Made by a program: the position numbers and the translations under genes | The notes under the pieces: model-generated | Database searches by the model: none | Seen by the model: the letters and a program-made list of their open reading frames with translations, nothing else | What the model was told of the DNA's origin: nothing | Shown here: piece after piece, positions 6,760 through 59,261 of the stretch | Position numbering within the stretch: position 1 is the stretch's first letter | How the letters are laid out: every line of letters starts with the position of its first letter | DNA from: a virus | Taxonomy: Duplodnaviria; Heunggongvirae; Uroviricota; Caudoviricetes | Virus record (IMG/VR): IMGVR_UViG_3300042349_000626 | DNA length: 64,000 bases | Reading direction: 5' to 3' (one strand)

Positions 6760-6815
6760 GAAATCGGGAAAAAAATTCCCGGTAAAAAATCGTCAAAAAA
6801 GTTGAGGGTAAAAAA
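6760..6815. repeat. ~55-bp A-tract/hairpin element, copy 2 (contains the CGGGAAAAAAATTCCCG hairpin)
   Basis: Homologous to 4524-4580. Directly upstream of ORF 6814. Confidence 0.5.
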
Positions 6816-6957
6816 TGAGCTTACTTTCTAAGAAAGACCATGAAATGGTCATCGAGGCACTAGAAACCCTAATCCAAACAAAGGAGGAATCTGACGATAA
6901 ATTTGAATACTATAATTTACTTAATTGGGTAAAATTGAAGCAAAAAGACAAATTCTG
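6814..6957 (+). CDS. small hypothetical protein (47 aa)
   Basis: ORF downstream of the repeated element. Under 60 aa, so absent from the track. Confidence 0.3.
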
Positions 6958-6965
6958 ACTTAATC

Positions 6966-7382
6966 ATGTCACTTCTTGAAATTCTATTCAATGAAAAATC
7001 TGAAATAGCTGTACAAACCAGAGTTTGTAGGTATTGTAAAAAAGAAAAACCATTAACTAAAGATTTCTATCACAGAAATCATTCTACCCAAAATGGTTTT
7101 AGATATGAATGTAAAGAATGTAGAAAACCGGGAGGTGTTAAAGACCCTTCAGCTTCTAAGAAATTGAAGAAAAAATATAATCTAAAAACACCACTCCTAG
7201 GCACTCCTTGTGCTTGTTGTGGAAAAACTGATCAACTGCTGGTTTGTGATCATATTCATGGAACTGAAACCATTCGTGGTTTTATTTGTGATAATTGTAA
7301 TGTTGGTATTGGGAGACTTGGTGATAGTATTGAAGGCGTAAAAAAGGCACTTAATTATCTTGAGGGAAATTATTTGACATAA
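6966..7382 (+). CDS. HNH homing endonuclease with N-terminal zinc ribbon, inserted in the tRNA cluster
   Basis: CRYCKKEKPL..GFRYECKEC zinc ribbon plus CDHIHG...GFICDNCN HNH motif. AT-rich. Lies between tRNA genes. Confidence 0.7.
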   Translation: MSLLEILFNEKSEIAVQTRVCRYCKKEKPLTKDFYHRNHSTQNGFRYECKECRKPGGVKDPSASKKLKKKYNLKTPLLGTPCACCGKTDQLLVCDHIHGTETIRGFICDNCNVGIGRLGDSIEGVKKALNYLEGNYLT

Positions 7383-7385
7383 CAA

Positions 7386-7457
7386 TGGAGTGTAGCTCAG
7401 TGGTAGAGCGGTCGGCTGTTAACCGATTGGTCGTAGGTTCGAATCCCACCACTCCAG
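7386..7457 (+). tRNA. tRNA-Asn (GUU)
   Basis: Acceptor TGGAGTG/CACTCCA. D-arm GCTC-AGTGGTA-GAGC. Anticodon arm GTCGG-CTGTTAA-CCGAT. T-loop TTCGAAT with one T-stem mismatch. Confidence 0.85.
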
Positions 7458-7460
7458 TTT

Positions 7461-7543
7461 GGGTAGGTGTCCGAGTGGTTTAAGGAACCTGACTGTAAAT
7501 CAGGCGGCTCTGTCCAACGTTGGTTCAAATCCAACCCTGCCCA
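7461..7543 (+). tRNA. tRNA-Tyr (GUA), class II with 14-nt variable arm
   Basis: Acceptor GGGTAGG/CCTGCCC. Anticodon arm CCTGA-CTGTAAA-TCAGG. T-arm GTTGG-TTCAAAT-CCAAC. Confidence 0.85.
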
Positions 7544-7587
7544 TTGGCGATACTGCCAAACCAGAATCCCTTCCGTGTGCTTTAAAA

Positions 7588-10600: not shown

Positions 10601-13600
10601 TATACTGTTTCGTTAGAAACTTTAAATCCAGATGGTATTTCAATTGATAATAGAGCACAGGATGCTTCAAATATCATTGAAACTAATAAAACATTCATTC
10701 AGCAAGAAGCATACGGATATATCACACAAAAGTATCCAAATCTTCTAACAAATACTAACATCGAAATTTCTACATGTGAAAGAGACATTGGTTATTTTGT
10801 TGATGCTGTAATTCAAGATTTACGTCTTGGTGGCAATATTAACACTATTCAAGCTGCCGAAGGTTATTATATTGGCGGTCAATTAGCATACATTTCTAAT
10901 GAATTAAACGAAACAATAGAAGCTCTTGATTACGTCAAGAATCTTTGTATTTCGACGATGAGAAATTATGATTATCTCATCAGAAATTGTGTAACGACAC
11001 AGGGTTCTGCTATTGTCGATATTGGTGACACAAGTGGAATCTTGATTGGAATGAAAGTAACCCAGTATGATTACAATCTAATTAATTTTACTGATGGTAA
11101 ATTGAATCCTGGTGCTACACCAGTACAGTTAAACCCAGTTATTCCTAATAACGTATATGTTAAGAAAATTATTGATGCTAACAGAATTGAGCTAGGTAAT
11201 CTTGGCAGTAAATTAGAACAAGGTTTGTCTGTCCCAGCAAACTTAAATTCTTCTTCTGCTTATCTATACTTTGAATTACCAAAAACAACATCAATTGTAG
11301 ATAGCGATTCTAATCTTGTTGGTTCTTGGGCAGCGACTCCAGCTAAAAAAGATAATACTTTAATACAAGATACCAGCACTTGGGGTCCTACTGCTGGCAA
11401 TGGCTATCCTGAGTGTTCTGGTGTTGCTACTATTATTCAGGAGTATTTTGTAAATATATTCTTGATTCTTAATCAAGGTTTAACTCCTCTTGGCGGTAAA
11501 GAAGTTGATGCTTCCAATTTAATTCTTGCTAATAAGAATTTAATCGCTGAGGAAGCAGTTGATAGAATGCTTATTGCTAACCCAGGATTTGTAGTTCCTG
11601 GTGGCAATCAACAATGTACTGATGACGTTAAATTAATTATTGATGCTATTGCTTATAATATTAAGTACGGCGGTAATAGTAGAGTTTATGATGCTGCTAG
11701 AGTATATGTACTTCAGCCTAATTTACTTAATGGAGAAAGAACTCAGGCTGTTCAAGTTTATACTCAAGTAAGAGATCTTGCTATCCAGGCAATGAGAAAT
11801 CAGGTGATTACTATTCAAGGTGATCACAATTTAACTCAGTACATCGATAATACTGTTATTGGTGATCTTTCTGGTCAAGCTGGAGTCTATGATTCAGCTA
11901 ATGATTGTGCTGATATTGCTAGCACAATTACTACATTTAATGGTATTATTACTGGAGCTATTGGTACTGACGCTGATCCAGGTGATCTTGTTGGAATTAC
12001 CAGAACTGAACCAGAATTTAATAATGTAACTCGTGTAGAACCAGTTGTCGATACTGCTAATCTTGCTTCTAGAGCAACACTATTCACTGTTAATGTTGGT
12101 GGTGGTACTTCAAACCCACACAATTTTGAAACAGGAACTGCTGTTCGTCTTGTTCCTAAAGCAAGAGAAAGTACGAATCCAGATAAGAGAGTTATTCGTC
12201 TCCCAAGAGGATTCCAAACTAACACAGTTTATTATGTAATTGCTCCAGGAAGAAGCACTTCACCAGAAGATTATTCTGATGAAACAACATATCCAAACAC
12301 GTTTGGTCCTGATGAATCTACCAAGATCATGCTTGCTAGGACTAAAGAAAATGCTGCTGCTGGTATTTACATCTATTCGTCAGAAACAGATTCTGTAGAC
12401 GAAGAAGTAGAAATTGAACTTCAGCAGTATGTTCTTGATGAAACTTATGATCTACATCAATACCTATGTAACTTTATTACTGGTCAAACTGATGTAATTC
12501 AGACAGATGTACCACACGTTTTTGATGTCCCTTCTACATTAAATACAGTACATAAAGTTTTCTTTAGATCATTTGGTGATCCTAGTGAATCAGAATTGCC
12601 ACAAATTACTAGCGGTGGCATAACAGAGCCAATTGATACTAACACATATTACTATGCTAGATTTGTTACACCAAAAACTTTCGCTCTTTTCTATACTCCA
12701 ACTGAAGCAATTTCTGGTACTCCTAGAATCACTTTTACTGCTGGATTTGGTAAGAATTTCTATGTATTCTCGGATAAGAGAGAAAGCCCAGTAAAATTTG
12801 ATGCTACTTTAGTAAATGCTGATACTACTACTGGTCAATGGTATATTAACACCAAGAATGAAATTAGCAATCAATTTAATATTATTAGAAGAATTCAAGA
12901 ACTTGGCGATACCTTAAAAGATGCTAGAAGTAAGAACACTTTCTACAGAAGACTTAGAGATAATAGAACAGCTCAAGACAGAATTTATCGTTTAAGATAT
13001 GTAATTCCTGAGTATGCTCAAGGTGTTCGTGATCCTCTCAATGGATTTGTTCTTAAAGCAAGAACTGACGAAACAAGAAGACTTCTCCCACAAAAAATTG
13101 TTTTAGCTCCTGTTGCTGTTGGATCTCCTAATCTTGCTTATTTTGAAATTCAATTACAGCAACCAACTGGCGGAACAATCGCCCAGCAATTAGGATTACC
13201 TAAATCTCAGTTAGATCTTAATTTTGAATATGATCCATACAACATTAATCAAGTAAAAGTAATTGATAGTGATAAAACACAAAGTAAAGTATCATTTAGC
13301 ATTCAATCTGCTAGACAAGTTAATGTAAATGGAACAAATCTTATTGAGTTAACTGTATTTGATTACGGAATTACCAACGATCAGTTGAGAAATGAGAAAT
13401 TCACTACGGTCAAAATTGATGCTCCTCAAGGGGGAACTTTCCGATTTAATACATTAAACAGTGTATCAAATAATAGAATTACTTGGTCTGGTTTTTCTGC
13501 TGGTTCTGGCTACCTACAAGGTTACTTTAATGTAGATGGAACTGATGAACATTACTTAATCATCAAAAATATTGATGATAATAAGAGAATTGAGTATAAT

Positions 13601-16600
13601 TCACTTATTGATACTGTATTCACTCAACCTGTTCTTGACATTGATGGAGAACCAGTATTTGATGGTGATGGAAATGCCGTATTGATTTTTGCTTTTCTAC
13701 AAGCCAAAGAAAACAGCGTAGGAAGTGTAAACAATTCATTAAGTAAATCTGATAGAAAAGATTATCTATACAGCATTAAGGATTCTAATGTTCTTACAAT
13801 AACTCCTGGTGATATTATTGAAGATGATGACAGCACTCAATATAGAGTTATATCAGTTGAGGATGCTGGTCAAATTGAAGATTCTTTCTACATCTTTGAT
13901 ATTGATGAAATCCAAAGACGTATTCCTAATCAGCAAGCTGGTATTTACTACCTAACTTGCCTTAAAGGTAATATCTCGCCATTCCCAACTGGACCTGGAG
14001 TTGGTACTAACTTTAGAAACTTTAAGTTTAGTCAGCCAATTTCTCAACTGTATCCATTAGATTATAAGAATGATCCTCTGTGGTTCCAGGTAAGAGCAGA
14101 TGGTTCTAGAGATACTTCTATTGTAGACGTTCCTCCAACCATTTGTGCTGCTGATAACTTTGTTCATGGTTTAGTAACAACTAACGATTCTAAGAACAGT
14201 GAAACTAAAGAAGTTGTTTTAGATTTTATTAATAATCCTGCTTTAAACAGATATGATTACGTAGTTAATCCTATTGCTGCTCAAGCAGGAAATGCTACTT
14301 CTGGTTCTGAGGATAGATTAATTCCTATCTCTGGTGATTCTCCATACCCAACTGAAGGTAGACTATATGTAGAACTTCGTAGACCATCTATTGCTCGTTC
14401 TGGCAACCACACCTTCGAATATCTAGGTTTTGGTCCTGGTAACTACTCAACTGGTTTCCCACTAAGACAAGAAGTTGTTCTTTCCGATATTCAGGATTTC
14501 TATGCTCAATCTAAGAAAGAAGATGGTGGTATTGTATTCTATACTGGTCTAAACTCCAACGGTGACCTTTATATTGGTAACCGTAAAATTAATGCTATTA
14601 CTGGTGAAGAGACATATTTAGAAAGGGCTCAATTAATTTCATCCGATGATGAAACAGATGATTTGGGTGGTCTAGTTACTACGTTCGAACTCCCTGTTGT
14701 ATTTGAAAAAGATATTACTGTAGATGGCAATGCTAACTTTAATAATCCAGTAACAATTAATGTAGAACCATCTGAACCATTTGCTCTAACTGTTGTATCT
14801 AATTTAAATTCTTCCGCTGGTGAAGATGTAACATTAGATAGTGCCACGTTTGCTTTAAGTGACATTCCTTCGGAAGGTAATATTGTATTGAGTAAAAATA
14901 ATATTTACTCTGCCATATTTACTTTAAATCCACGAGGTAACACTGCTTTAAGTGGTCAAAATTACAGCATTAGAACTCATGTAAACCAAACAAACGGCAA
15001 TATTCCTTCCAATTACACTCCAAATCAAGAATTAAGCACTCTTGGATTGAATGTAACATTTGGATCTGCTTCTCCTACTCCAGGTGATATTCTTCTAAAA
15101 GGAGCCCAAGTAGACAAAACTGGATCACTTGGATGGATTTACAGTAATTTCTATGATTTAATTACATCCAATGTATTCACTGTAACTGCTTTAGGTTCAA
15201 ATATTGTTCAGTTTACACTTCAGGTAGGCGTAACAAATAGTCAAATTGGTATTACTCAAGGTTCTAAATTAAAAATTGGTGGATTTACTGGAAGATATGC
15301 TAATTTAAATGGTCTTAGAACTGTTGGCACTGTCACCACAAATACATTCCAAGTAATCTCGCCGTTTATTATTTCCACCAGTGTCGATGATCCTACTATC
15401 ATTCCAGCTGGATGGAGTATTGAAATTTCTAGAAATTCCTGGAAAGAATTTGGTGTTCTTGGAGCGGAAACTTTAAGAACAAATACACAAAATTATGGAG
15501 ATTTTAAACTTGGTATTAATACTCTTGCTAGAGCAAAACATGGCACTGACGGAGATCAATTAACTGGTTTTGTTTCTCAAGCAGTCGATCCTAGAGCTAA
15601 TCTAGATATCGTTGGTAATGCCTTTATTAGTGGCAGAACTTTAAGTACTTCTCCAAACAACTTTATTAACAATCCTCTATTATCAAATAGAACATTTAAT
15701 AAAGTTGATCATGCTTTTATTGTTGGATTTGATCCAAAAACAAATGCTCCTCAAGATGAAGTTGTTCTAAGAGTTGCTTCCACAACTATAGGAACTGCTT
15801 CAAATGCTGGTGGAAGAATTGGTATCAACACCACGTTATCTGAGTTGGATAGAAACTTTGTTGTTAAAGGTAACGCTAGAATTACTAATGATCTTAAGTT
15901 AGAATCTAATCTAGCAATTAACGGTGGATCATTAACAACTACAAGTACATCGTTTAATATTCTTGATACTATTGCCACAGATGTAAACGCTTTCAGTGTT
16001 GCTGAAGAGTTAAACATTGCTAATATTACTAATGAAAATCAATTAATCAACATTGGTAATGTATCAAACACTCAAGAATTTAACATTGGTAGATTTGTTC
16101 AAACTAGCCAGTTGTGGATTCATAGTAACTCTACTAATTCTTTAGTCGATATTGGTACTGTAAGTGAATCTAGTGCTAATACTAGTATTATTAGAATGGG
16201 TGGTGCTTTTGGAAAACTTAGTAACGTAGAAAGCTTATTTAAAATCAGGAACCGTTATACTGAAATTGATGGTAATCTATCAATCGGTACTTACAATCCA
16301 CCAGGAACAGGTTTCTCGGAATTCCAAACTAATTCTAGAGAAGTTGAAATGTTCAGCAGAAACATTTCAACACTTGATTTTGCTACATCAGTAACAAGAT
16401 TAAACATTGGTGGTGCTGGTGGTTTCACCACAATCAATAATACTCTGGTAGTGAAAAATGCTGCTGAGGTTAATGGTGATATTACATTAATTGGTGGATT
16501 GAACGCTGGAGCGTTTACGGTAAGGAGAGGTTCTTTCGGAACTCCAACTACTATACATGTAAGAGGAAATATTGATCTCCTAAACGTCGATATTTTCAAA

Positions 16601-18172
16601 AAAGTAATCATCCAAAGAACTATTGATACTCAAGGATTATCATTCTGGGGAGGAACGACATATCAAGTTGATCCATCAAATGCCGAAGAATATTTCCTAC
16701 CTATTGGGGAGCAAAGTTTCAACGAGTTTGGTATTGGTGATTATGTTTTAATTGATCGTTCTGTACAAGTTACTGGTCAAGATACTGTATCTTCTCCTGT
16801 TGGAGAGCAATATAGTGAATTAGTACAGGTTATTGAACTTACTAATCTAAACGATATTTCTGATTTACCACTTAGAGTTAAAGTAAAGCGAGCTAGAAAT
16901 GCTCTTACTGGCGAAGGTTTGATGATATCTGGTCCTAATGTTGGATCCAGCACAGGTGTTTATCGTTATCTTAGAACTGATCACCCAGATAATGCTGTTC
17001 TTGTAAAATATACTTTAGCAAATGATGTAAGTTATATTGATGAAGTAAGTGGATTGAATAATCCTGGTTCGGGAACAGTTCAAACAATTGCTACTGGTGT
17101 ATTCAGCGGATCTGTAATTCCTGGCGATATTCTGAGATTTAGTGATAGTGAATTAGCTAATGTTAATGCTATTAATCAGACAACTAATCAACTTTTCAGA
17201 ATTAATGATGGCGGCAACCCAGCGAATACTGTGTTCCAAGTTGATTCTACAACTGGTAATACAATTATAGCAGGAACTTTAGATTTAAATAAAACCTTCA
17301 CACTTATTGGATCTTCAACAACAAATCAAGATAGATTTGTAATTACTAATGGCACTTCTCAAAGATTTGCTGTTGATAGTGCTACTGGCAACACATGTAT
17401 TTTTGGAAATCTTGGTGTTGGTGGTTCGACTTGTGATAGATTTAAAGTTGATGGCGCTACATCAAATACCACTTTACGTGGTGGAAATCTATTAATTACT
17501 GACAACAATCCTGTTGATGATGGTGATGGTGGATTAGTATTTGGTCAGAAACTATTCTTACAAAATACTACAGGAAATCTGACTATTTCTGGAACGTTAA
17601 CTACTGAAGGATCTGGTACTAGCACTTTTGCTGGTGATGTTAAAATTAACGGCGGTGATTTAACAGTTAATAAGATTGTTAGTGATGGTGATGGTGGAAC
17701 ATTAGAGCAAAAATTATTTGAAATTGGCAATGATGGATCTATGGATTTTGCTGGAGTAAATGGATTCTTTACTCCATCGGGTGCTAGAAAATGGGTATAC
17801 GTTGGTGGTGGCGAAGATGTCATCGAGGGGGTTGCTAATGTGAATTATTTCCTTTCTCCTTCTGCTGACACCATCTTCAAACTTCCACAAAATCCAACGA
17901 CTGGTGATATGATTAGAGTAGTAGATGTTGGTGGAAATCTAACTTATAATATCTCATTGAGATTTAGAGCACCTTCGACTGTTCGTGTTCAGGGAGACAA
18001 TACAAACTCTGGACAAGGACCAGCTATCGGGTCTACATATAATGGTGGTGAACTTGTAGTACAATCTCCAAATGCTGCTCTCGGATTAATTTACATTGGT
18101 CCATTAAATTATGATGGTACTACTACTGGGGCTCCTCCATCACAACAAGGTTGGTGGTTAATGGAAATCTAA
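7658..18172 (+). CDS. giant virion structural protein (3504 aa) with four N-terminal ~140-aa repeats; probably fibre- or tail-associated
   Basis: Uninterrupted ORF. Repeats CQRDIGYFVDAV..GGGN, CKRDIGYIVDAV..GGNAN, CERDIGYFVDAV..GGNIN, CTDDVKLIIDAI..GGNSR. T/N/S/G-rich C-terminal half. Confidence 0.8.
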   Translation: MALTRLDNLYSSKTGKYLYVSPDDFNATDELDNRGNSPLRPFKTIQRAFIEVARYSYLPGQDNDRFDQFSIMLMPGDHYIDNRPGLIEVDRGEKQRYFDAKELIIANRQEIIDRAFGEIAIEYDEAAWGTDWVVPGDPINSDLNRGFDSYRLIQKNRQEIVDGAFAQIAITHPTFTNPNSAKCQRDIGYFVDAVSLDVLLGGGNRYTRKFLQNYFNNSGTAWIDNGLQGEEAESTTAFNKARDLMKAAVANQLTFKDLTLTIDPLTGSNTTVNSCANIQTTIATLTAIVTDVINDGNLEYLPEETIETIGLGESKCKRDIGYIVDAVAADLANGGNANIVAAAKSYFTKEGLPISNGLLGEEAQSVIAFNAAKVMMKKAVTNQLYSKDLNILSGPAVYNSGGPVVPNLPSGNVATCVDVQATIDTLIGIITTAISDGDITSLANVQITGDIPVFNYNRALEEWQDNSILDLSNPDNVLYKFNASTGGAIVPRGCSLIGYDLRRTIVRPLYVPDPADGTQERTSIFNLTGGCYIWQFTIKDGDLSENSPLYDNNDKVGKVYFQKGNNTQLAIPEYSHHKITIMTYADLDDLDLYYNKVATAFALFQPTIDDGDLEALPQENRIVGPLSDTRSIVNIRLKQSTNPSRTTIVATTKIAHGYFVNQYVAIVDNGLNDLLNGTFKVTAVDQEDPRIFEYQVATTPAILGLDINENGYSNSTTPSLNLSARAQAEIDSVESASPYVFNCSIRSTWGQCGMWADGSKATGFKSMVVAQYTGVSLQRDDRAFIRYDEFSNTWNQASLVDAFATIPYHSKGDAYWKDDWRNFHIRASDDAFIQCVSVFAVGFFDHFLMESGGDMSITNSNSNFGNTSLHAVGFKGFSFNQDKGGYITDIIPVKEIDDSAFNEVELKYYSIALQVSKDVANQTKLYYGSDDSYDPFDRPSTSISGYRLGAKTDEKIYLKLKSPAGTTEEYFSSVTPNGFKKYTVSLETLNPDGISIDNRAQDASNIIETNKTFIQQEAYGYITQKYPNLLTNTNIEISTCERDIGYFVDAVIQDLRLGGNINTIQAAEGYYIGGQLAYISNELNETIEALDYVKNLCISTMRNYDYLIRNCVTTQGSAIVDIGDTSGILIGMKVTQYDYNLINFTDGKLNPGATPVQLNPVIPNNVYVKKIIDANRIELGNLGSKLEQGLSVPANLNSSSAYLYFELPKTTSIVDSDSNLVGSWAATPAKKDNTLIQDTSTWGPTAGNGYPECSGVATIIQEYFVNIFLILNQGLTPLGGKEVDASNLILANKNLIAEEAVDRMLIANPGFVVPGGNQQCTDDVKLIIDAIAYNIKYGGNSRVYDAARVYVLQPNLLNGERTQAVQVYTQVRDLAIQAMRNQVITIQGDHNLTQYIDNTVIGDLSGQAGVYDSANDCADIASTITTFNGIITGAIGTDADPGDLVGITRTEPEFNNVTRVEPVVDTANLASRATLFTVNVGGGTSNPHNFETGTAVRLVPKARESTNPDKRVIRLPRGFQTNTVYYVIAPGRSTSPEDYSDETTYPNTFGPDESTKIMLARTKENAAAGIYIYSSETDSVDEEVEIELQQYVLDETYDLHQYLCNFITGQTDVIQTDVPHVFDVPSTLNTVHKVFFRSFGDPSESELPQITSGGITEPIDTNTYYYARFVTPKTFALFYTPTEAISGTPRITFTAGFGKNFYVFSDKRESPVKFDATLVNADTTTGQWYINTKNEISNQFNIIRRIQELGDTLKDARSKNTFYRRLRDNRTAQDRIYRLRYVIPEYAQGVRDPLNGFVLKARTDETRRLLPQKIVLAPVAVGSPNLAYFEIQLQQPTGGTIAQQLGLPKSQLDLNFEYDPYNINQVKVIDSDKTQSKVSFSIQSARQVNVNGTNLIELTVFDYGITNDQLRNEKFTTVKIDAPQGGTFRFNTLNSVSNNRITWSGFSAGSGYLQGYFNVDGTDEHYLIIKNIDDNKRIEYNSLIDTVFTQPVLDIDGEPVFDGDGNAVLIFAFLQAKENSVGSVNNSLSKSDRKDYLYSIKDSNVLTITPGDIIEDDDSTQYRVISVEDAGQIEDSFYIFDIDEIQRRIPNQQAGIYYLTCLKGNISPFPTGPGVGTNFRNFKFSQPISQLYPLDYKNDPLWFQVRADGSRDTSIVDVPPTICAADNFVHGLVTTNDSKNSETKEVVLDFINNPALNRYDYVVNPIAAQAGNATSGSEDRLIPISGDSPYPTEGRLYVELRRPSIARSGNHTFEYLGFGPGNYSTGFPLRQEVVLSDIQDFYAQSKKEDGGIVFYTGLNSNGDLYIGNRKINAITGEETYLERAQLISSDDETDDLGGLVTTFELPVVFEKDITVDGNANFNNPVTINVEPSEPFALTVVSNLNSSAGEDVTLDSATFALSDIPSEGNIVLSKNNIYSAIFTLNPRGNTALSGQNYSIRTHVNQTNGNIPSNYTPNQELSTLGLNVTFGSASPTPGDILLKGAQVDKTGSLGWIYSNFYDLITSNVFTVTALGSNIVQFTLQVGVTNSQIGITQGSKLKIGGFTGRYANLNGLRTVGTVTTNTFQVISPFIISTSVDDPTIIPAGWSIEISRNSWKEFGVLGAETLRTNTQNYGDFKLGINTLARAKHGTDGDQLTGFVSQAVDPRANLDIVGNAFISGRTLSTSPNNFINNPLLSNRTFNKVDHAFIVGFDPKTNAPQDEVVLRVASTTIGTASNAGGRIGINTTLSELDRNFVVKGNARITNDLKLESNLAINGGSLTTTSTSFNILDTIATDVNAFSVAEELNIANITNENQLINIGNVSNTQEFNIGRFVQTSQLWIHSNSTNSLVDIGTVSESSANTSIIRMGGAFGKLSNVESLFKIRNRYTEIDGNLSIGTYNPPGTGFSEFQTNSREVEMFSRNISTLDFATSVTRLNIGGAGGFTTINNTLVVKNAAEVNGDITLIGGLNAGAFTVRRGSFGTPTTIHVRGNIDLLNVDIFKKVIIQRTIDTQGLSFWGGTTYQVDPSNAEEYFLPIGEQSFNEFGIGDYVLIDRSVQVTGQDTVSSPVGEQYSELVQVIELTNLNDISDLPLRVKVKRARNALTGEGLMISGPNVGSSTGVYRYLRTDHPDNAVLVKYTLANDVSYIDEVSGLNNPGSGTVQTIATGVFSGSVIPGDILRFSDSELANVNAINQTTNQLFRINDGGNPANTVFQVDSTTGNTIIAGTLDLNKTFTLIGSSTTNQDRFVITNGTSQRFAVDSATGNTCIFGNLGVGGSTCDRFKVDGATSNTTLRGGNLLITDNNPVDDGDGGLVFGQKLFLQNTTGNLTISGTLTTEGSGTSTFAGDVKINGGDLTVNKIVSDGDGGTLEQKLFEIGNDGSMDFAGVNGFFTPSGARKWVYVGGGEDVIEGVANVNYFLSPSADTIFKLPQNPTTGDMIRVVDVGGNLTYNISLRFRAPSTVRVQGDNTNSGQGPAIGSTYNGGELVVQSPNAALGLIYIGPLNYDGTTTGAPPSQQGWWLMEI

Positions 18173-33317: not shown

Positions 33318-34300
33318 CACTCAAACGATCAATTGATTACAAGGATCAACTACTCACTTTCAAACAACTTGAGGGTGTAGTTGCTCGTAAAGACATTATC
33401 ACTGGTCCTGCTGAAGCTATTGTTGCTCAAGCAAAGATCAATGATTTTTCCTGGGAATCTGCTGTTCAAACATATTCGAAGTTCACGAAAGAAGAACAAG
33501 CAGACATTCGTAAGTCTGGACAGCAATTGCTGGCTGGATACTATGATCCCCTCACAAATACCATAGGTTCTCCTGGTTCTAACCCCACAGAAGCCAGGGG
33601 TATCATGATTACCCAAATGTATCTCAATCAGGATCGTTGCTGTGCTTATAGTGGCGACGGTCCATATCATATTTTAGATTTTCAGGTAGAACACATTGAT
33701 CCTATTGCTGGTGATCATCCAGAAAATATTGTACTTGTCCTTGCTAACATCAACGAGAACAAGAAGCAATCTGCTCAAAATTTTATTCAACGTTGTGAAC
33801 GTCGATATGAAATGGGAGAGCTTGAATATACTATCTGGTATAAGTCTATGAAAGACGCTGTGAAGCGTAATCATAAGATGAAAGCGGAGATTCTTTCTAT
33901 GAGTGAGCATGAATTGTGTCAGTATTGGCTCACTCGTACCACACCCAAATACGACAAATATGTGTGGCGTAACATTGGGATGTCTTCGCTGAGTGAATTC
34001 CGTATCCTCAAGGGTTCTGGAATCAAGCGAGCTGGTGGCACTCAGGGGAACTACGTGGACATCCTCAACACTATCGCTGCCGAGCACCTGTTCGGAAATC
34101 CTGACGTAGCACGAGACATCTACGAGTGTGCTAGAATGTTCAGGAGCAATTTTCTCAATGGACGGATTCAGCGTGAGGAATATGCCATGTTTAACATGGA
34201 GATTATAGAGTTGTCAGATCACATCAATCCAGGTTATAATAGAGAAAAGTTTTACAACAACATCGTTCGGAACAACTATTCATGGCCTCATCTAAACTGA
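33314..34300 (+). CDS. protein with C-terminal HNH nuclease motif
   Basis: CCAYSG..H..VEHIDP...N..NENKK HNH-like motif. ATGA overlap with the helicase stop. Confidence 0.55.
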   Translation: MTLKRSIDYKDQLLTFKQLEGVVARKDIITGPAEAIVAQAKINDFSWESAVQTYSKFTKEEQADIRKSGQQLLAGYYDPLTNTIGSPGSNPTEARGIMITQMYLNQDRCCAYSGDGPYHILDFQVEHIDPIAGDHPENIVLVLANINENKKQSAQNFIQRCERRYEMGELEYTIWYKSMKDAVKRNHKMKAEILSMSEHELCQYWLTRTTPKYDKYVWRNIGMSSLSEFRILKGSGIKRAGGTQGNYVDILNTIAAEHLFGNPDVARDIYECARMFRSNFLNGRIQREEYAMFNMEIIELSDHINPGYNREKFYNNIVRNNYSWPHLN

Positions 34301-35139
34301 CCAACCATTCCCTGTACCGCTACGCTGGCGGTAAAAATAGGATGAAAAATGAGATTATCGACATTATCAAGGATGTTTATCCTGGTGTCGATTATGTTGT
34401 TTCTCCTTTTCTTGGCGGCGGTTCGGTTGAGATGCTGCTTGCCTCTCAAGGCATTCAAGTACAGGCATACGATATTTTTCGTTCCCTTGCCGATTTTTGG
34501 GAAATACTGACTACCGAAGGTGGCAACCGATTGGCGGATGAAGTCACTAAACATTATCCGTTGATTGATAGTGATCATTATAAATCTTTTCTGCCATTAA
34601 TGGATAGTGAAGATAAATTTACCCGTGCCTGGGCATTCTATATTGCTATCAAGGGATCTTATTCTGGAAAGATTGGATGCTCCACTGTACGCTCTAGGGC
34701 AGAATTTCGCTTGGTTGGTGTGGAAAAGCTTAGGAAATTCAATAATCCCAACTTTAGTTTCAACTATGGCAGTTGTTTCGACACCATTCCCCAGCATGTA
34801 GATGATTTCATGTATTTGGATCCACCGTACTACGAAACTGTCAGCCATTATTATGGTAAGGATGGTGAACTACATAAGACGTTCGACCATGAAGAGTTTG
34901 CCGAGATTCTTAAATCTCATCGTGGCGGCTTTGTAATGTCCTACGATAACAGCGAAAGTGTTCAAAACCTTTATAAGGATTGGACTGAGTTTCGATACTT
35001 GACTTTCCCGTATCAAATGTCTGGCACTAAGCGGTATGAGAAAACGGAACTCATCATCGTTAAATATCCAGAAAATCCCAAACCAAAACCCAAAAGTATA
35101 CTAGAAACGTTTTTAACACAGGAGAATGTAAATGTATGA
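34282..35139 (+). CDS. dam: Dam-family N6-adenine DNA methyltransferase
   Basis: YAGGK, SPFLGGGSVEM (AdoMet site), YLDPPYY (catalytic DPPY). Overlaps the HNH gene stop by 19 nt. Confidence 0.85.
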   Translation: MASSKLTNHSLYRYAGGKNRMKNEIIDIIKDVYPGVDYVVSPFLGGGSVEMLLASQGIQVQAYDIFRSLADFWEILTTEGGNRLADEVTKHYPLIDSDHYKSFLPLMDSEDKFTRAWAFYIAIKGSYSGKIGCSTVRSRAEFRLVGVEKLRKFNNPNFSFNYGSCFDTIPQHVDDFMYLDPPYYETVSHYYGKDGELHKTFDHEEFAEILKSHRGGFVMSYDNSESVQNLYKDWTEFRYLTFPYQMSGTKRYEKTELIIVKYPENPKPKPKSILETFLTQENVNV

Positions 35140-40192: not shown

Positions 40193-40221
40193 TTGACAGA
40201 CCACGATCACCCTGTTATTTT
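40193..40221 (+). promoter_or_regulatory. candidate sigma70 promoter TTGACAGACCA...-17-TATTTT upstream of rnlA
   Basis: Same TTGACAGACCA start as the 4936 promoter. Weak -10. Confidence 0.35.
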
Positions 40222-40241
40222 AATTGAAATTAATCAAGACC

Positions 40242-41411
40242 ATGAACTACGATTTTCCTGAAATTAATCATATTGACGATGTGATTCCTCACATTGAAGA
40301 TCTCCCTGAGTTCAAGGTGATGGTCAAGGATTGGTACACTGTCATCAATTATATGGTGGCGTTTGATGAAACGTTTTCGCTTGTTCGTGAGCGTAGTCAC
40401 CACAATATGAAGATTCGTCGTGAGTGTCGTGGTCTGATCTTTGATACTGAAACTGGCAATCTTATTTCTCGCCCATACCATAAGTTTTTCAATGTTGGCG
40501 AGCGTGAAGAAACTGCTATCAACAAAGTTAATCTGTATGAACCTCATGTGGTTCTGGAGAAACTTGATGGTTCTATGATCCGTCCGATTCCTACAAAAGA
40601 AGGTTTTCGTCTTGCTACCAAAGCAGGTGTTACTGATGTAGCAATGAATGCTGAGGTGTTTATTGCTGACAAACCAGAATATGCTAAGTTTATCCGTTCC
40701 TCTATTGCTTGTGGGATGACCCCCATTTTTGAATGGGTCTCTAGAAAAAATCGTATTGTAGTTGATTACCCAGAAGATAATTTAATTCTTACTGCTGTTA
40801 GGGACAATCTAAGTGGAACTTACCTCCACCATTCAGTCATTGTTGAAACTGGCAAAAACTACAATATTCCTGTTGTAAAATCACTTGCTGGACTTGCTGT
40901 TCAAAACATTGATTTGTTTGTCAATCAGGTTCGGGAATGGGATGATGGTGAAGGTATTGTGCTACGATTTAATAGTGGGCACATGGTTAAAGTGAAAGCA
41001 GATGAGTATGTGCTTCGTCACAAATCCAAGGAGCAGATCAGTCAGGAGAAAAACGTTCTCCAGACCATCCTAAGTGACTCTGTGGACGACGTTGTGCCCC
41101 TGCTCACCCCTGACGACGCCACCCGCCTTAAAGCGTTCCAGAACGCCTTCTGGCTATCTGTAGACGATCTTGCCAGCGAGATGGCAGACATGTATAATGC
41201 TGGTAACATCATGTATCCAGAGAAAAAGGATTTCGCTACCAAGTACGTACAACGTATGATTCTACCGATTCACGCTCCTATCATGTATGCTATGAAAGGT
41301 GGTAAGGGTTCCCGTGCTACCATTATAGATATGATCAGCAAGTCGCTAACGACTCAAACTAAAATTGAACAAAATCGCTGGTTGTGGGGGCATCTGAAAT
41401 GGAATGTGTAA
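40242..41411 (+). CDS. rnlA: RNA ligase 1 (T4 RnlA-like)
   Basis: ECRGLIFDTETG..ISRPYHKFFNV, KxDG motif EKLDGSM, FEWVSRKNRIVVDY resemble T4 Rnl1 blocks. ATG 40242; the track used TTG 40224. Confidence 0.75.
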   Translation: MNYDFPEINHIDDVIPHIEDLPEFKVMVKDWYTVINYMVAFDETFSLVRERSHHNMKIRRECRGLIFDTETGNLISRPYHKFFNVGEREETAINKVNLYEPHVVLEKLDGSMIRPIPTKEGFRLATKAGVTDVAMNAEVFIADKPEYAKFIRSSIACGMTPIFEWVSRKNRIVVDYPEDNLILTAVRDNLSGTYLHHSVIVETGKNYNIPVVKSLAGLAVQNIDLFVNQVREWDDGEGIVLRFNSGHMVKVKADEYVLRHKSKEQISQEKNVLQTILSDSVDDVVPLLTPDDATRLKAFQNAFWLSVDDLASEMADMYNAGNIMYPEKKDFATKYVQRMILPIHAPIMYAMKGGKGSRATIIDMISKSLTTQTKIEQNRWLWGHLKWNV

Positions 41412-41908
41412 TGCTGTGTGGTATACCAACGTCAGGTAAATCTACCTTCGTTGAACGTCTTCTCAAGACAGATTATTGGAAAAATTGTGTAGTGCTGTCC
41501 ACAGATTACTACATTGATTACTACACCAAGAAATTTGGGAAGACATACAACGAAGTGTTTGATGAATACATTGACGAAGCAACCAAAAGCATGAACAAAT
41601 GCTTGGCACATGCTATCGAAAATGAGAAGCACATCATCTGGGATCAAACCAATCTTGGTGTGAAAGCACGAAGAAAGAAACTGAATAAACTCCCGTCACA
41701 TTGTCACAGAGGAGCAATCTATTTTGAAGTTCCTTTGGAAGAAGCAATGGAACGTAATGAACACCGTGAAGGTAAGTTCATTCCAAAAAGCATTCTTCAT
41801 AGAATGTATCACCAATTTGAAATTCCCACTGTAGCAGAAGGATTTGATTATGTCGAATGTGGAACTGAAGAAATGCTTCGTCTTCGATCTCGATGGCACT
41901 ATTTGTGA
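41411..41908 (+). CDS. pseT: polynucleotide kinase, 5'-kinase (P-loop) domain, T4 PseT-like
   Basis: MLCGIPTSGKST Walker A. TAATG overlap with the rnlA stop. Frame ends at TGA 41906 inside the Pnk linker. Confidence 0.7.
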   Translation: MLCGIPTSGKSTFVERLLKTDYWKNCVVLSTDYYIDYYTKKFGKTYNEVFDEYIDEATKSMNKCLAHAIENEKHIIWDQTNLGVKARRKKLNKLPSHCHRGAIYFEVPLEEAMERNEHREGKFIPKSILHRMYHQFEIPTVAEGFDYVECGTEEMLRLRSRWHYL

Positions 41909-42311
41909 TGTTCGTCACCGAAGACAATATGTAGCAACGAAACCCCGTAACTGGGATGCTTGGAATGCTGGTCTGGTAAATGATACACCTAATGTAGCAG
42001 TACAAAAAGTATTTCAAGCACTTCGTAATGATCAGGAAGTTGACTTGATTATTGTTTCTGGTCGCTCAGATGACTATAAAGAACAAACTATCAAGTGGTT
42101 GACTGACAACGAAATCTTCTACGATGAGATTTATATGAGAAAGTATAAGGATCATCGTGATGATGCGGTTGTCAAAAATGAGATTGCGGATGAGATTGAG
42201 AAGACACACAAAATTCTTGGTGTGTTTGATGATCGCCAGCGTGTTGTCAACATGTGGATTGAGCGTGGCATCTGGGTGTTTGATGTTGGACAAGGCAAGG
42301 GACAGTTTTGA
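41844..42311 (+). CDS. pseT: polynucleotide kinase 3'-phosphatase (HAD) domain. Probably joined to the kinase ORF by a +1 frameshift (programmed or error) near 41867-41876
   Basis: FVFDLDGT (HAD motif I), VSGR, DDRQRVVNMW resemble the T4 Pnk C-domain. No ATG near the domain start; the track starts it at TTG. Confidence 0.65.
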   Translation: MIMSNVELKKCFVFDLDGTICDVRHRRQYVATKPRNWDAWNAGLVNDTPNVAVQKVFQALRNDQEVDLIIVSGRSDDYKEQTIKWLTDNEIFYDEIYMRKYKDHRDDAVVKNEIADEIEKTHKILGVFDDRQRVVNMWIERGIWVFDVGQGKGQF

Positions 42312-42313
42312 AA

Positions 42314-42356
42314 CTGACACAAGAGGGTTGACACCCTCTTTTTTATGGTCTATACT
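42314..42356 (+). promoter_or_regulatory. composite terminator/promoter: TGACACA-AGAGGGT-[TGAC loop]-ACCCTCT-T6; TTGACA(42328)-17-TATACT(42351)
   Basis: 7-bp stem plus U-run that is also an exact -35/17/-10. Lies just after the pnk stop. Confidence 0.6.
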
Positions 42357-42379
42357 GACTTCAGTTCAAACAAAAAAAC

Positions 42380-42580
42380 ATGTCCAGTTCTTCCTCTTCC
42401 TCCAGCGGTATCGGTTTCCCTGGTCTGCTGACTGTTCTGTTTGTTGGTCTGAAACTTACTGGCCACATTACTTGGCCATGGGTGTGGGTGCTGTCGCCGT
42501 TGTGGATTAGTGCTCTTATCTTTCTTTGTGCTGTTGCCACTATCGTGATTGTTGGTGTTATTACTGGTGCTTTCAAATGA
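42380..42580 (+). CDS. small membrane protein (poly-Ser N-terminus, two TM segments)
   Basis: 66-aa hydrophobic ORF. Confidence 0.45.
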   Translation: MSSSSSSSSGIGFPGLLTVLFVGLKLTGHITWPWVWVLSPLWISALIFLCAVATIVIVGVITGAFK

Positions 42581-42756
42581 TTGAAGCAATTGAAACCGCA
42601 ATCTACGAAGGAAAAATCCTCTGTGGATTTTCTACTCGTGAAGAATGTAAAACCTTTATCAAAGAAAAATACCCAGATATTGACCCCTTTGATGTTGAGT
42701 TGAAAACTCAATATCTTACTTATAACAAACCTTATAATGGTGGAGTGCCCCGATGA
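42577..42756 (+). CDS. hypothetical protein (59 aa)
   Basis: ATGA overlap with the previous stop. Confidence 0.35.
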   Translation: MIEAIETAIYEGKILCGFSTREECKTFIKEKYPDIDPFDVELKTQYLTYNKPYNGGVPR

Positions 42757-42892
42757 GAAGTTTTTTTGAGGAATATGTTGCTATTCCACTTGGCATTCTG
42801 ATGTTGATTTTTATTGCTCCAACTGCGGTGCTTGGTGGACTGAAACTTGCCGCAACTTTAGTTGATATGACTCCTGCTTGTGAGGTGAGCAA

Positions 42893-43075
42893 ATGAAACC
42901 AAAGTATCATGTGATTCTTGAATTAGCAATCGAGCAGGGTGTTCAACGTGGTTGGCGTCTTGCTCACAAACATGTAGAAAATCCTGAAGAGCATGTAATC
43001 ATTGATCGTATCAATGATGCTGTGATGTCTGCTATTACTGATTACTTTACCTTTGAAGATTCTGATTTCGTATGA
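42893..43075 (+). CDS. hypothetical protein
   Basis: 60-aa ORF, ATGA-coupled to the ligase gene. Confidence 0.4.
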   Translation: MKPKYHVILELAIEQGVQRGWRLAHKHVENPEEHVIIDRINDAVMSAITDYFTFEDSDFV

Positions 43076-44115
43076 ACACCGTCCGTAAACTTGCTTCCAT
43101 TAAACCTATTACTTACATCAAACCCATTGAAGGTGCTGATGCTATTGAGTGTGCTATCGTGGATGGTGGTTGGCCAGTAGTGGTCAAGAAAGGTGAGTAT
43201 AAAGTTGGTGATATTGCTATCTACCTTGAGATTGATAGTTGGGTGCCTCATGAACTTGCTCCATTCCTCAGTAAGGGTCAAGAACCCCGTGAGTATAATG
43301 GTGTGAAGGGTGAACGTCTCAAAACTGTTAAACTTCGTGGTCAAGTAAGTCAGGGTCTTTTGCTGCCGATTGAACTTACTTTCTGGCGTGATATTGGCAC
43401 CGACCTTACCGAATCGCTGGGTATTCAGAAGTGGGAACCGCCCATCCCTGCTCAACTTCAGGGAACGATGAAGGGTAACTTCCCCCACTTCATTCCTAAA
43501 ACTGACCAGGAGCGTTGCCAAAACCTTCGTAAAGACATCTTTGAGGAGCACGAAGGTGAAACCTATGAAGTAACTCTCAAACTTGATGGTAGCAGCACCA
43601 CCATTTATATCAAAGATGGTGAGATTGGTGTGTGTTCTCGGAACATTGACCTTAAGGAAACTGAGGGTAATAGTTTCTGGAAAGCAGCACGGGAACAGAA
43701 CATCATTGAACCTTTGCTTGAACTGAGCAAAGAGAAAGGTGAAGAGTATGCCATTCAAGGTGAGTTGATTGGTGAGGGTATTCAGGGTAATCCCGAGAAA
43801 CTCAAAGGTCAGCGTTTCTACCTGTTTGACATCTACAGCATCACTGAAGGTCGTTATTTTGAACCATTTGAGCGTTATACCGTTCTTGACCAACTGAGGA
43901 TGCTTGGTGCTGATGTGGAGCATGTTCCTATCATTGACCAACACGTTTTTGTTACCCAACAATACGAAACCATTGACGACCTTCTTAACTTTGCCGAAGG
44001 TCCATCGCTGAACCCACAGACCAAACGTGAAGGTATCGTATTCAAATCGTGGGATAGTGATTTCACTTTCAAAGCGATTGCTAACTCGTATCTCCTAAAG
44101 CATAAAGACCGATGA
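43072..44115 (+). CDS. second ATP-dependent RNA/polynucleotide ligase (KxDG nucleotidyltransferase with N-terminal OB-like module)
   Basis: Motif I TLKLDGSS. N-terminal pattern IKPIEGADAIECAIVDGGWPVVVKKGEYKVGDIAIYLEIDS resembles DraRnl-type RNA ligases as I remember them. Confidence 0.6.
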   Translation: MNTVRKLASIKPITYIKPIEGADAIECAIVDGGWPVVVKKGEYKVGDIAIYLEIDSWVPHELAPFLSKGQEPREYNGVKGERLKTVKLRGQVSQGLLLPIELTFWRDIGTDLTESLGIQKWEPPIPAQLQGTMKGNFPHFIPKTDQERCQNLRKDIFEEHEGETYEVTLKLDGSSTTIYIKDGEIGVCSRNIDLKETEGNSFWKAAREQNIIEPLLELSKEKGEEYAIQGELIGEGIQGNPEKLKGQRFYLFDIYSITEGRYFEPFERYTVLDQLRMLGADVEHVPIIDQHVFVTQQYETIDDLLNFAEGPSLNPQTKREGIVFKSWDSDFTFKAIANSYLLKHKDR

Positions 44116-47674: not shown

Positions 47675-48187
47675 ATGAACATCTTTGTCACATCACCATG
47701 GCCAGCAGAATCTGCTTTGTGTCTTCCTGACAAACATATTGTCAAGATGCCATTAGAATGCTGTCAAATGCTTTCGATAGTAGCATCTAAGTGGTATCAC
47801 AATTATGGTCCTCTTCATAAATCCGATGCCACTCCCTATGCTACAGAAAAGGGGGCATTCCGTAATCATCCATGTACACAATGGGCGGCAGAGTCTATCC
47901 ATAATGCCTATTGGCTGATTAAACATGGAATGAATCTATGTGATGAATTTGAACTTCGTTATGGAAAACCACATTCATGTTATTTTACTCTTTTGGAAGC
48001 ATATTACCTGTTTCCCAAGGGCAAAATTACAGAAGTAACACCATTTGCCCGTGCTATGCCAGATGAATTTAAACTTGACACAAGCATTGACACTTTTACT
48101 GCTTACAAGATGTATATTTCGTCCAAACCTTGGGTTGCATCTAATTATCTTCGTATGCCAGAACGTAAGCCCGAGTGGGTAGCATAA
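47675..48187 (+). CDS. conserved-looking hypothetical protein (MNIFVTSPWPAESALCLPDKHIVKMPLECCQMLS..)
   Basis: 170-aa ORF. The N-terminal pattern looks like a recurrent phage family I cannot name. Confidence 0.45.
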   Translation: MNIFVTSPWPAESALCLPDKHIVKMPLECCQMLSIVASKWYHNYGPLHKSDATPYATEKGAFRNHPCTQWAAESIHNAYWLIKHGMNLCDEFELRYGKPHSCYFTLLEAYYLFPKGKITEVTPFARAMPDEFKLDTSIDTFTAYKMYISSKPWVASNYLRMPERKPEWVA

Positions 48188-58489: not shown

Positions 58490-58761
58490 TTGTGCCACTG
58501 ATTCAACTGGCACACACCACTCACCAACACCACTCAGCAGCCCCTACAATAAGCACAGTTCAAACAACTCACATGAACACCACTGTCACCATCACTCTCA
58601 CTCCTGAGCAGCGTACAGCTCTTGCTGATGCTCTTTATATTCGAGCAATGGATCTTCAAGCCAACGTTCATGGAACAGATCGTAATGTGGCAATGAATGA
58701 AGTTGCTGCTTGTTTGCTCGATCAAATGGATTATCCTGTACATGAATGGATGAATGTATGA
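58486..58761 (+). CDS. hypothetical protein
   Basis: ORF. Confidence 0.35.
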   Translation: MIVPLIQLAHTTHQHHSAAPTISTVQTTHMNTTVTITLTPEQRTALADALYIRAMDLQANVHGTDRNVAMNEVAACLLDQMDYPVHEWMNV

Positions 58762-59261
58762 TCAAAGCAGCAGTATTTTGTGGTAAAATCATTCCTGGTT
58801 ACTATGTTTCCACCGATGGACGTGTATTCACTACTAGAATCAGAATCAGAAACAAAGGAAAGATTACTCGGTTTGACAACACAGGACCAATGGTAGAAAT
58901 GATACAAACAAGATGGAATAAAAAACAAGATTACCTATCTGTTCGCCTAGCAATACCATATGGATTATTACCCAATGATGAACACTACCAAAAGAAAAGA
59001 AAAAATTTAAATTGTACAACATATCAACGTAGAGTATATGTTCATAGGTTAGTAATGGAAACATATAAACCAATAGAAAAGTATCCACCTGATAGATTGA
59101 AAACACATTGGAAAGAATTACCATCACCAGTCAAAGAGATTATAAGTGAAATGATCTATGTTAATCATATGGATCATGTACAAACAAATAATCATGTAAG
59201 TAATCTTGAATGGGTAACACCACAAGAAAACTCTATTAGGGCAGCTACTTTCCGCAGGTAG
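58746..59261 (+). CDS. HNH homing endonuclease, second copy, AT-rich island
   Basis: YYVSTDGRVFT...VHRLV...VNHMDHVQTNNHVSNLEWVTPQEN is a classic phage HNH homing-endonuclease signature. Confidence 0.75.
   Translation: MDECMIKAAVFCGKIIPGYYVSTDGRVFTTRIRIRNKGKITRFDNTGPMVEMIQTRWNKKQDYLSVRLAIPYGLLPNDEHYQKKRKNLNCTTYQRRVYVHRLVMETYKPIEKYPPDRLKTHWKELPSPVKEIISEMIYVNHMDHVQTNNHVSNLEWVTPQENSIRAATFRR

Follow-up and report, generated by a model that had tools for sequence, protein, structure and literature searches.

Predicted heal-and-seal RNA repair genes of a T4-like cyanophage, with kinase and phosphatase on separate genes and an Rnl5-family ligase nearby

We analysed a 64,000-nucleotide stretch of viral DNA (hereafter the window; IMG/VR record IMGVR_UViG_3300042349_000626, Caudoviricetes), in which an initial annotation, made from the letters alone, had recognised a T4-style RNA repair module between positions 40193 and 44115. 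The module probably represents an early-expressed heal-and-seal RNA repair system of a T4-like cyanophage, which would counter RNA-cutting defences of the host. It comprises genes for an Rnl1-family RNA ligase, a candidate polynucleotide kinase and a polynucleotide phosphatase, followed by another ligase, from the Rnl5 family; all its genes and signals lie on the plus strand. Evidence from profiles, structures and individual residues upholds the initial identification of these enzymes as RNA end-healing and sealing homologues of T4 Rnl1 and T4 Pnkp, and the enzyme families, their catalytic residues, the gene architecture and the conservation of gene order are evident at the level of sequence.

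Among the large open reading frames (ORFs) of the window are matches to T4-type families of the baseplate hub, the short tail fibre and the tail-fibre chaperone. A cpeT/cpcT phycobilin-lyase gene is found at 5680–6243 (+), inside a tRNA cluster (PF06206, E 1.5e-40), and indicates a phycoerythrin-containing cyanobacterium as the predicted host. The only nucleotide matches of the window among cultured phages are the Synechococcus myoviruses S-CREM1 (in the Rnl5 gene, at 81% identity) and S-PM2 (in a small ORF). Based on the T4-type structural genes, cpeT and these two nucleotide matches, we assign the window to a T4-like, Kyanoviridae-like cyanophage without a close cultured relative. An identical ligase protein is recorded on contigs of up to 192 kb in assemblies from JGI, NCBI and Logan.

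The first gene of the module (40242–41411) codes for an ATP-dependent RNA ligase of 389 amino acids (aa) with the nucleophile K107, and its suspected similarity to T4 RNA ligase 1 is borne out by several searches. The protein matches the Pfam model PF09511 (E 3.1e-28), nearly the whole of PHROG 562 (E 4.7e-68; 'RNA ligase and tail fiber attachment catalyst', the T4 gp63 family), and the T4 Rnl1 structures 2C5U and 5TT6 in the PDB (E ~1e-17, best 6e-18). In an hhalign comparison its columns 60–371 align with columns 51–364 of T4 Rnl1, which has 374 residues (99.9%, E 8e-32). Motif I reads EKLDGS, with K107 aligned to T4 K99, and the residues K107, D109, G110, E164, E237, G238, K250 and K252 correspond to T4 K99, D101, G102, E159, E227, G228, K240 and K242. 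These eight residues, which cover the nucleotidyltransferase (NTase) motifs I, III, IV and V, show no variation among 27 relatives. The N-terminal subdomain is likewise present, with R63, K81 and F83 (T4 R54, K75 and F77) found within the segment ECRG...KFFN; in T4 Rnl1, Arg54 and Lys75 of this subdomain touch the γ-phosphate of ATP (PMC6379707). All 12 T4 residues checked (those named above and K119) are retained in the window protein, and most of them are invariant in the 27 relatives, down to 36% identity.

As RNA ligase families are told apart by their appended domains (PMC6379707), the C-terminal domain was tested by itself. In T4 Rnl1 this domain confers specificity for the tRNA anticodon loop, tRNA repair being the physiological role of the enzyme (PMC6379707). 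Aligned alone by hhalign, the C domain of the window ligase matches that of T4 Rnl1 with 88% probability (E 2.9e-6) over 107 columns. An AlphaFold2 model, built from an alignment of sequences at least 70% identical only, is helical over residues 263–382, with a blockwise predicted local distance difference test score (pLDDT) of ~65–84 at residues 261–300 and ~88–94 at 301–380. Only this helical C domain and the Foldseek ranking were used from the model; the top Foldseek matches are T4 Rnl1 (5TT6 and 2C5U, 384 columns), and the other families of ligases rank six orders of magnitude lower. With moderate confidence, then, the window ligase can be said to possess an all-helical C domain homologous to that of T4 Rnl1.

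In three of the related loci that were compared with the window (designated by L-numbers such as L033 and L043), namely L070, L090 and L095, the Rnl1 gene is split into two ORFs after ...TGEYLPY by an insertion of ~630 bp. The insertion encodes, in antisense orientation, a homing endonuclease of the GIY-YIG type (PF22945, E 4.6e-8; L070:6548–7195(-), L090 and L095:6593–7216(-)), and the ligase of these loci may be made as two polypeptides.

The second gene (41399–41908) encodes a candidate stand-alone P-loop polynucleotide 5'-kinase of 169 aa (165 aa if counted from the ATG at 41411). It matches the Pfam family AAA_33 (E 9.7e-20) with the Walker A motif GIPTSGKST, and aligns to positions 7–142 of the 295 positions of PHROG 505, the profile of the bifunctional Pnkp. 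Among solved chains the kinase domain of Pnkp1 comes closest (4XRP, 1.5e-8), with T4 Pnk reaching only 0.38. The catalytic set of the T4 Pnkp kinase comprises K15, S16, D35, R38 and R126, and K10, S11, D32 and R119 of the window protein (numbered from ATG 41411) are the counterparts of T4 K15, S16, D35 and R126. The initial annotation had the kinase start where a TAATG sequence overlaps the stop of the ligase gene. The junction does exist, at 41409–41413, but the start most likely lies at ATG 41399 (MECVMLCG...), which is kept in relatives, was picked by gene callers in three independent assemblies and adds a strand before the P-loop as in those relatives. From this start the gene overlaps the ligase gene by 13 nucleotides (nt), and TAATG is therefore probably internal. 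The functional end of the kinase is probably near ...EGFDYVE. A homologous stand-alone kinase of Sinorhizobium phage phiN3 (L187, 2477–3067) is annotated, probably wrongly, as a 'putative polyA polymerase', and two genes 3' of it this phage encodes a metallophosphoesterase and no HAD phosphatase.

The third gene (41850–42311) encodes a stand-alone polynucleotide 3'-phosphatase of the HAD (DxDGT) type, 153 aa in length. It scores 96.8 bits against PF25109 (HAD_PNKP; E 1.7e-27, cut-off 27.6), carries the motif DLDGT, and aligns to positions 157–294 of 295 in PHROG 505; its solved relatives are Pnkp1 (1.2e-12) followed by T4 Pnkp (2.4e-5). The residues D13, D15, T17, R24, R72, D105, D127 and D128 are all conserved, and the equivalents of T4 D165, D167, R176, R213, D254, D277 and D278 are retained. 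Profile hidden Markov models of the RNA ligase, P-loop kinase (AAA_33) and HAD_PNKP families were thus all matched in this region, the motif I lysine, the Walker A motif and the DxDGT motif are present, and the best homologues of the ligases are RNA ligases, not DNA ligases.

A sigma-70-like promoter candidate (TTGACA-17-TATTTT with a TG; 40193–40221) is located 21 nt 5' of the ligase ATG and is kept nearly base for base in L033, L034 and L058. The ligase-kinase-phosphatase unit is closed by an intrinsic-terminator-like hairpin at 42321–42346 (8 bp, -10.9 kcal/mol, followed by a T-run), the stem of which covaries in relatives (AGAGGG/CCCTCT, GGGGC/GCCCC, GGGGGG/CCCCCC) with the TTGAC loop and the T-run unchanged. 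A promoter-like element, CACAAGAGGGTTGACA-17-TATACT (42318–42356), starts the downstream unit; its hexamers, TTGACA-17-TATACT, are at 42328–42356, the first of them (-35) forming the loop of the terminator hairpin. Two promoter-like sites, in line with the promoters mentioned in the initial annotation, are thus present, the second of them within the terminator; promoter-like hexamer pairs as such are not enriched region-wide (20 found against 14.6 expected from region-wide shuffles). The longer motif CACARGRGGNTTGAC is enriched, with six copies on the plus strand (4926, 32030, 36159, 42318, 49738 and 60596) against 0.07 expected, and near-variants at 54420 and 59603. Every copy is followed 17 nt on by TAnnnT and another 20–40 nt on by an ATG, and several copies are also G/C hairpin and T-run terminators; they look like early promoter/terminator cassettes of this phage. 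No copy of the late motif TATAAATA was found near the repair module, the flanking promoters being sigma-70-like only, and on account of this absence the module is probably expressed early.

Downstream of the second promoter-like element four small ORFs, where three had been noted initially, are ATGA-coupled and lead into the second ligase gene. The first (42380–42580, 66 aa) is a hydrophobic, conserved cyanophage protein (PHROG 1374, 9.5e-17) that has 86% nucleotide identity to a hypothetical gene of S-PM2 and is found in relatives; the second (42577–42756, 59 aa) and the hydrophobic third (42753–42896, 47 aa) are placed elsewhere in the relative L046, and the fourth (42893–43075, 60 aa) is found directly 5' of the Rnl1 gene in other relatives. 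Considering the promoter, the terminator/promoter hairpin, the lack of late motifs and the layout of the ORFs together, the core operon would consist of the ligase, kinase and phosphatase genes, with the second ligase in the next transcription unit.

The second ligase (43072–44115, 347 aa, nucleophile K170) was correctly described at the outset as a KxDG enzyme with an OB-like N-terminus: PF21189 (OB) spans residues 7–100 (E 1.7e-27) and PF09414 (NTase) residues 164–335 (E 1.4e-26), and there is no C-terminal appendage. It aligns end to end with the Naegleria enzyme NgrRnl (PDB 5COT; residues 4–347 against 4–340, E 3.5e-103, 55% identity) and passes the DraRnl equivalog model TIGR02306 (195.4 bits, cut-off 151.15). 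Nine residues of NgrRnl form its active site (K170, D172, E227, E312, K326 and R149) or belong to the OB domain (R4, D53 and K121) (PMC7261155). Each of the nine has an identical counterpart in the alignment, with R5, D55, K120, R148, K170, D172, E231, E320 and K334 of the window protein matching NgrRnl R4, D53, K121, R149, K170, D172, E227, E312 and K326. We therefore place it in the Rnl5 family (NgrRnl/DraRnl type) and predict a nick-sealing activity. An identity as T4 Rnl2 was rejected: an N-terminal OB domain is present, the protein ends with the NTase domain and lacks the Rnl2 C-terminal domain, and the nine solved chains that a sequence search retrieved are NgrRnl without exception, with no Rnl2 chain at E 1. 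An identity as a DNA ligase was also rejected, DNA_ligase_A_M scoring 17.6 bits, under its cut-off, as against the NgrRnl match at 3.5e-103. Its earlier inclusion in a T4-style tRNA repair set does not hold, as the enzyme is an Rnl5 protein and its gene stands behind the terminator. To our knowledge, tRNA repair in T4 involves Pnkp and Rnl1 only.

The ligase-kinase-phosphatase order recurs in dozens of viral contigs, and dozens of related contigs come from uncultured viruses. Where a viral locus has an Rnl1 relative followed by 1.5 kb or more of sequence, as in 61 cases, a kinase is present in 46 (within 600 nt in 38), a kinase plus a phosphatase in 34, and an Rnl5 gene in 13. In cultured phages the kinase matches three Synechococcus phage records only, and the best Rnl1 matches listed among cultured phages include only three Synechococcus phages, B3, B23 and BUCT-ZZ01. 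In B23 the kinase match is just 3' of the Rnl1 gene, and in Ruegeria phage RpAliso an RNA ligase gene is followed by one annotated as 'polynucleotide kinase', with a second gene so annotated upstream.

T4 mends RNA ends produced by PrrC through a heal-and-seal pathway (PMC10264068; PMC7824862), and many metal-independent RNases generate ends that bear a 2',3'-cyclic phosphate and a 5'-OH (PMC7824862). By analogy, the core unit, with its one promoter, tightly packed genes (a first overlap of 13 nt and a second of 59 nt) and one terminator, would supply the necessary steps together. The HAD phosphatase would strip the 2',3'-cyclic or 3'-phosphate left by metal-independent ribonucleases and the P-loop kinase would add a phosphate to the 5'-OH, after which the Rnl1-type ligase, adenylylated at K107, would activate the 5'-phosphate and seal the break. 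Its C domain appears homologous to the T4 domain behind the preference for tRNA anticodon loops. The Rnl5 enzyme would probably seal breaks in duplex RNA, with a 3'-OH RNA strand at the nick, which Rnl1 is expected to handle poorly. The likely purpose of the system would be to undo the cutting of RNA, most plausibly tRNA, by abortive-infection or toxin nucleases of the host. The substrates, the nuclease countered, the timing of expression and the cooperation of the two ligases are what we infer here from the enzymes and their context.

Several observations weigh against this interpretation. The proposal of an RNA target and of a tRNA-targeting host defence is made by analogy, and the tRNA cluster, downstream of which the initial annotation had placed the module, is at 5147–7544, 33 kb upstream with structural genes between, being tied to the module by a shared promoter type only. 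The linkage counts overstate the support, since the loci are phylogenetically related, and they are to be taken as descriptive only. In the Rnl1-type ligase, PF20819 falls below threshold in the C domain (19.9 against 27 bits), with matches to it recorded in many close relatives; the AlphaFold2 model is poor overall (pLDDT 66, predicted template modelling score 0.42); and TIGR02308, the T4 RnlA family, gives 124.5 bits where 242.25 would be required of an NCBIfam equivalog. The protein thus appears to belong to a divergent Rnl1 subfamily and to be no NCBI equivalog of T4 RnlA. An equivalent of T4 Arg38 is absent across the kinase clade, where STDxYIE replaces T4 DDYR, and the best NCBIfam match of the kinase is not Pnkp but PSTK, the archaeal L-seryl-tRNA(Sec) kinase (56.5 bits; PSTK and Pnkp scores are both far under cut-off), PSTK structures also ranking second in the PDB (E 1e-6). 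Given the missing arginine and the PSTK match, the assignment of polynucleotide specificity to this kinase depends on its context. Finally, the Rnl5 gene is set apart from the core unit by the terminator and four ORFs and in many relatives is moved or missing, and at 46 of 80 viral loci that carry Rnl5 neither Rnl1 nor healing enzymes are encoded nearby.

The genes could alternatively form a general RNA repair kit against breaks that toxin-antitoxin, HEPN or CRISPR-associated RNases, or else a competing phage, introduce into mRNA or rRNA, instead of one directed at anticodon nucleases. The same end chemistry is left by many metal-independent RNases (PMC7824862), a ligase for duplex nicks such as Rnl5 suggests substrates besides anticodon loops, and the C domain matches that of T4 Rnl1 no more than moderately. 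That same C domain is nevertheless homologous to the domain that provides tRNA specificity in T4 Rnl1 (PMC6379707), and tRNA repair is the sole physiologically proven role of the Rnl1 and Pnkp pair; on balance we regard the broader function as unlikely.

A second alternative concerns mainly the Rnl5 enzyme, which, possibly along with the end-healing enzymes, might serve DNA metabolism and act on ribonucleotide-terminated nicks or on 3'-phosphate DNA ends after damage, not on RNA. In the NgrRnl assay the enzyme sealed nicks with an RNA 3'-OH strand, the 5'-phosphate strand being DNA (PMC7261155), and loss of DraRnl is reported to make Deinococcus radiation-sensitive (PMC5397189). A denV-type gene for a pyrimidine-dimer glycosylase is located 3.5 kb downstream of the window's Rnl5 gene, a region of S-CREM1 has denV and Rnl5 without Rnl1 or Pnk, and the 46 isolated Rnl5 loci noted above point the same way. 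Against this, an Rnl1-type gene is found within 10 kb in 29 of the 80 Rnl5 loci, a frequency far above that expected of a random gene, and the kinase and phosphatase genes are packed behind an RNA ligase gene, with the 13-nt kinase overlap, and behind no DNA-repair gene. A role in DNA metabolism hence appears quite unlikely.

T4 gp63 has a second activity in tail-fibre attachment, and the Rnl1 homologue could be kept mainly for that purpose, with RNA ligation secondary. PHROG 562 is named for both activities, and baseplate and tail-fibre genes are abundant 7–30 kb upstream of the gene. This explanation seems very improbable, as the ligase catalytic residues are invariant in 27 relatives of down to 36% identity and the tight linkage of the gene is with genes for RNA end healing, not with fibre genes; moreover, the two roles are compatible and need not exclude each other.

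The kinase and HAD phosphatase domains, which extend to 42311 as first described, are both real, but what had been taken for a single Pnkp is encoded by two genes. Their frames differ (codon-start positions modulo 3 of 2 and 0) and their start codons are separate, the phosphatase having its own ATG at 41850, 7 nt 3' of GAAGGA. The genes overlap by 59 nt, up to the end of the kinase ORF at 41908, and the DLDGT motif is within the overlap. Three independent assemblies agree on a kinase of 169 aa and a phosphatase of 153 aa, and the two are separate ORFs in 18 of 18 related loci inspected. The long overlap is kept in seven related IMG/VR loci with kinase identities from 98% to 62%. Among the more distant relatives inspected the layout varies and fusion was never seen: the genes abut or overlap by ~8–22 nt in L057, L060, L064 and L082, have a 75-aa ORF between them in L036, L040, L047 and L055, and in further relatives are on opposite sides of the ligase gene, with the phosphatase gene 5' of it. 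Because the assemblies agree, the relatives are unfused and the proteins cover two non-overlapping halves of one PHROG 505 profile, we conclude that they constitute a split Pnkp and not a single bifunctional protein. Such a split is structurally plausible, by analogy with Pnkp1, for which the structure paper describes kinase and phosphatase modules that dimerise separately and are hardly in contact. A sequencing error as the cause of the two frames was rejected, the same arrangement being found in the three independent assemblies and in relatives. The idea that an error or a programmed +1 frameshift at 41850–41908 conceals one T4-like fusion, which is prompted by the overlap and by the resemblance to T4 Pnkp, the linker being about as long, of a product joined at ...EGFDYV/SNVELKK..., can practically be dismissed in view of the recurrence of the layout and its alternatives, the conservation of the phosphatase ATG and GAAGGA next to a kinase tail of variable length, and the loss of DLDGT, situated inside the overlap, that a frameshift at the kinase stop would entail.

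In four relatives (L043:7655–8032, and also L046, L051 and L052) a gene for a deaminase of 125 aa stands between those of the kinase and the phosphatase. The L043 protein shows the cytidine/deoxycytidylate-deaminase (CDA) fold (PF00383, E 5e-10; HAE...PCPIC), and a deaminase in an RNA repair operon could act on RNA.

As a tentative scenario, possible but doubtful, the lineage would have permanently dismantled Pnkp into a free kinase and a free phosphatase, the junction serving as an insertion site (taken by the deaminase in some relatives), and Rnl5 would have been recruited beside the Rnl1 unit to give a two-ligase repair system, with Rnl1 acting on loops and Rnl5 on duplexes. If true, this would provide the Rnl5 family, whose physiological role is called uncharted in PMC5397189, with its first concrete biological context, and the recurring Rnl5/Rnl1 neighbourhood is in any case a testable lead to Rnl5 function. 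The preferred interpretation of the module, as an RNA repair system against host defences, extends the T4 heal-and-seal strategy to T4-like cyanophages with the known mechanism unchanged; it would also imply that RNA-cutting defences matter in picocyanobacteria and that the two activities of Pnkp, kinase and phosphatase, can function when each is encoded by a gene of its own. The system is largely ordinary, being another example of known phage RNA repair systems and not a new mechanism, with the split Pnkp and the neighbouring Rnl5 as variants worth recording.

In the remainder of the window, six tRNAs of the cluster pass Rfam (Met-CAT, Leu-TAA, Thr-TGT, Leu-TAG, Asn-GTT and Tyr-GTA), and one of the CACARGRGGNTTGAC copies is directly 5' of the cluster. 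Two tRNA-like calls were made by ARAGORN only, at 5147–5236 (a 90-nt 'Ile-TAT') and 6451–6522 ('Leu-CAA'), and remain under the Rfam thresholds: the tRNA-Sec model gives 34.1 bits where its cut-off is 47, and the tRNA model 27.8 bits where it is 29. An abiF-RNA-like match at 6589–6636 is likewise sub-threshold (32.6 against 37 bits). Inside the repair module no credible structured RNA was found with Rfam at E<=1. Pfam and NCBIfam scans of ~25 surrounding ORFs found no RtcB, Hen1, 2H phosphoesterase, CCA-adding enzyme or Tpt1, and returned only cpeT, a Dam-type N6-adenine methyltransferase (34282–35139), the DenV-type glycosylase (47675–48187), an HNH endonuclease (58746–59261), a helicase and a Band-7 protein. 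A 3504-aa ORF (7658–18172) is preceded at 7614 by the TATAAATA late-promoter motif.

Among known systems, Rnl1 and kinase gene pairs occur in the cultured Synechococcus phages B3 and B23, the Ruegeria/Roseobacter phages RpAliso and DSS3P8 and Caulobacter phage Cr30, which have a ligase of the same Rnl1 subfamily followed by a stand-alone kinase match. Their Rnl1 identity to the window is 58% in B23 and 36–41% in the others. The genes of B23 are annotated as hypothetical only, the second, upstream 'polynucleotide kinase' of RpAliso, known from its annotation alone, is possibly a phosphatase, and the placement of the phosphatase differs among these phages; none of the five records has the 59-nt kinase/phosphatase overlap or an adjacent Rnl5. 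The Rnl5 protein resembles NgrRnl of Naegleria gruberi, with which it is collinear over its full length, and DraRnl of Deinococcus radiodurans, sharing the OB and NTase domains and the active site, and differs in being encoded by a phage, 0.8 kb from an Rnl1-kinase-phosphatase unit. The phage Rnl5 homologues named in PMC4408790 are from Aeromonas, Caulobacter, Mycobacterium and Sinorhizobium phages, cyanophages not being among them. The closest solved relative of the kinase and phosphatase is Pnkp1 of Capnocytophaga gingivalis (4XRP, of the Pnkp1-Rnl-Hen1 complex), in which T4-type kinase and HAD folds form independent dimer modules; Pnkp1 is, however, a fused protein that partners an Rnl4-like ligase and the Hen1 methyltransferase, whereas the window ligase is of the Rnl1 type and the scan of neighbouring ORFs turned up no Hen1. 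In T4, Rnl1 (gp63, rnlA) and Pnkp (pseT) constitute the tRNA restriction-repair pathway that reverses the cleavage of tRNA-Lys by PrrC. The T4 Pnkp is one bifunctional protein of 301 aa, where the window has two overlapping genes and a kinase without an Arg38 equivalent; the window ligase is 24% identical to that of T4 over the aligned columns and under the NCBIfam equivalog cut-off; and four genes separate rnlA from pseT in T4, unlike the overlapping ligase and kinase genes of the window. The phage of the window is also not known to have a counterpart of Stp or PrrC. The likenesses to T4 extend to a homologous ligase with its N-terminal subdomain, NTase motifs and C domain, to the kinase and HAD phosphatase chemistry, to the order of the genes, rnlA being upstream of pseT on one strand, and to a probably early expression, consistent with the absence of a nearby late-promoter motif in the window.

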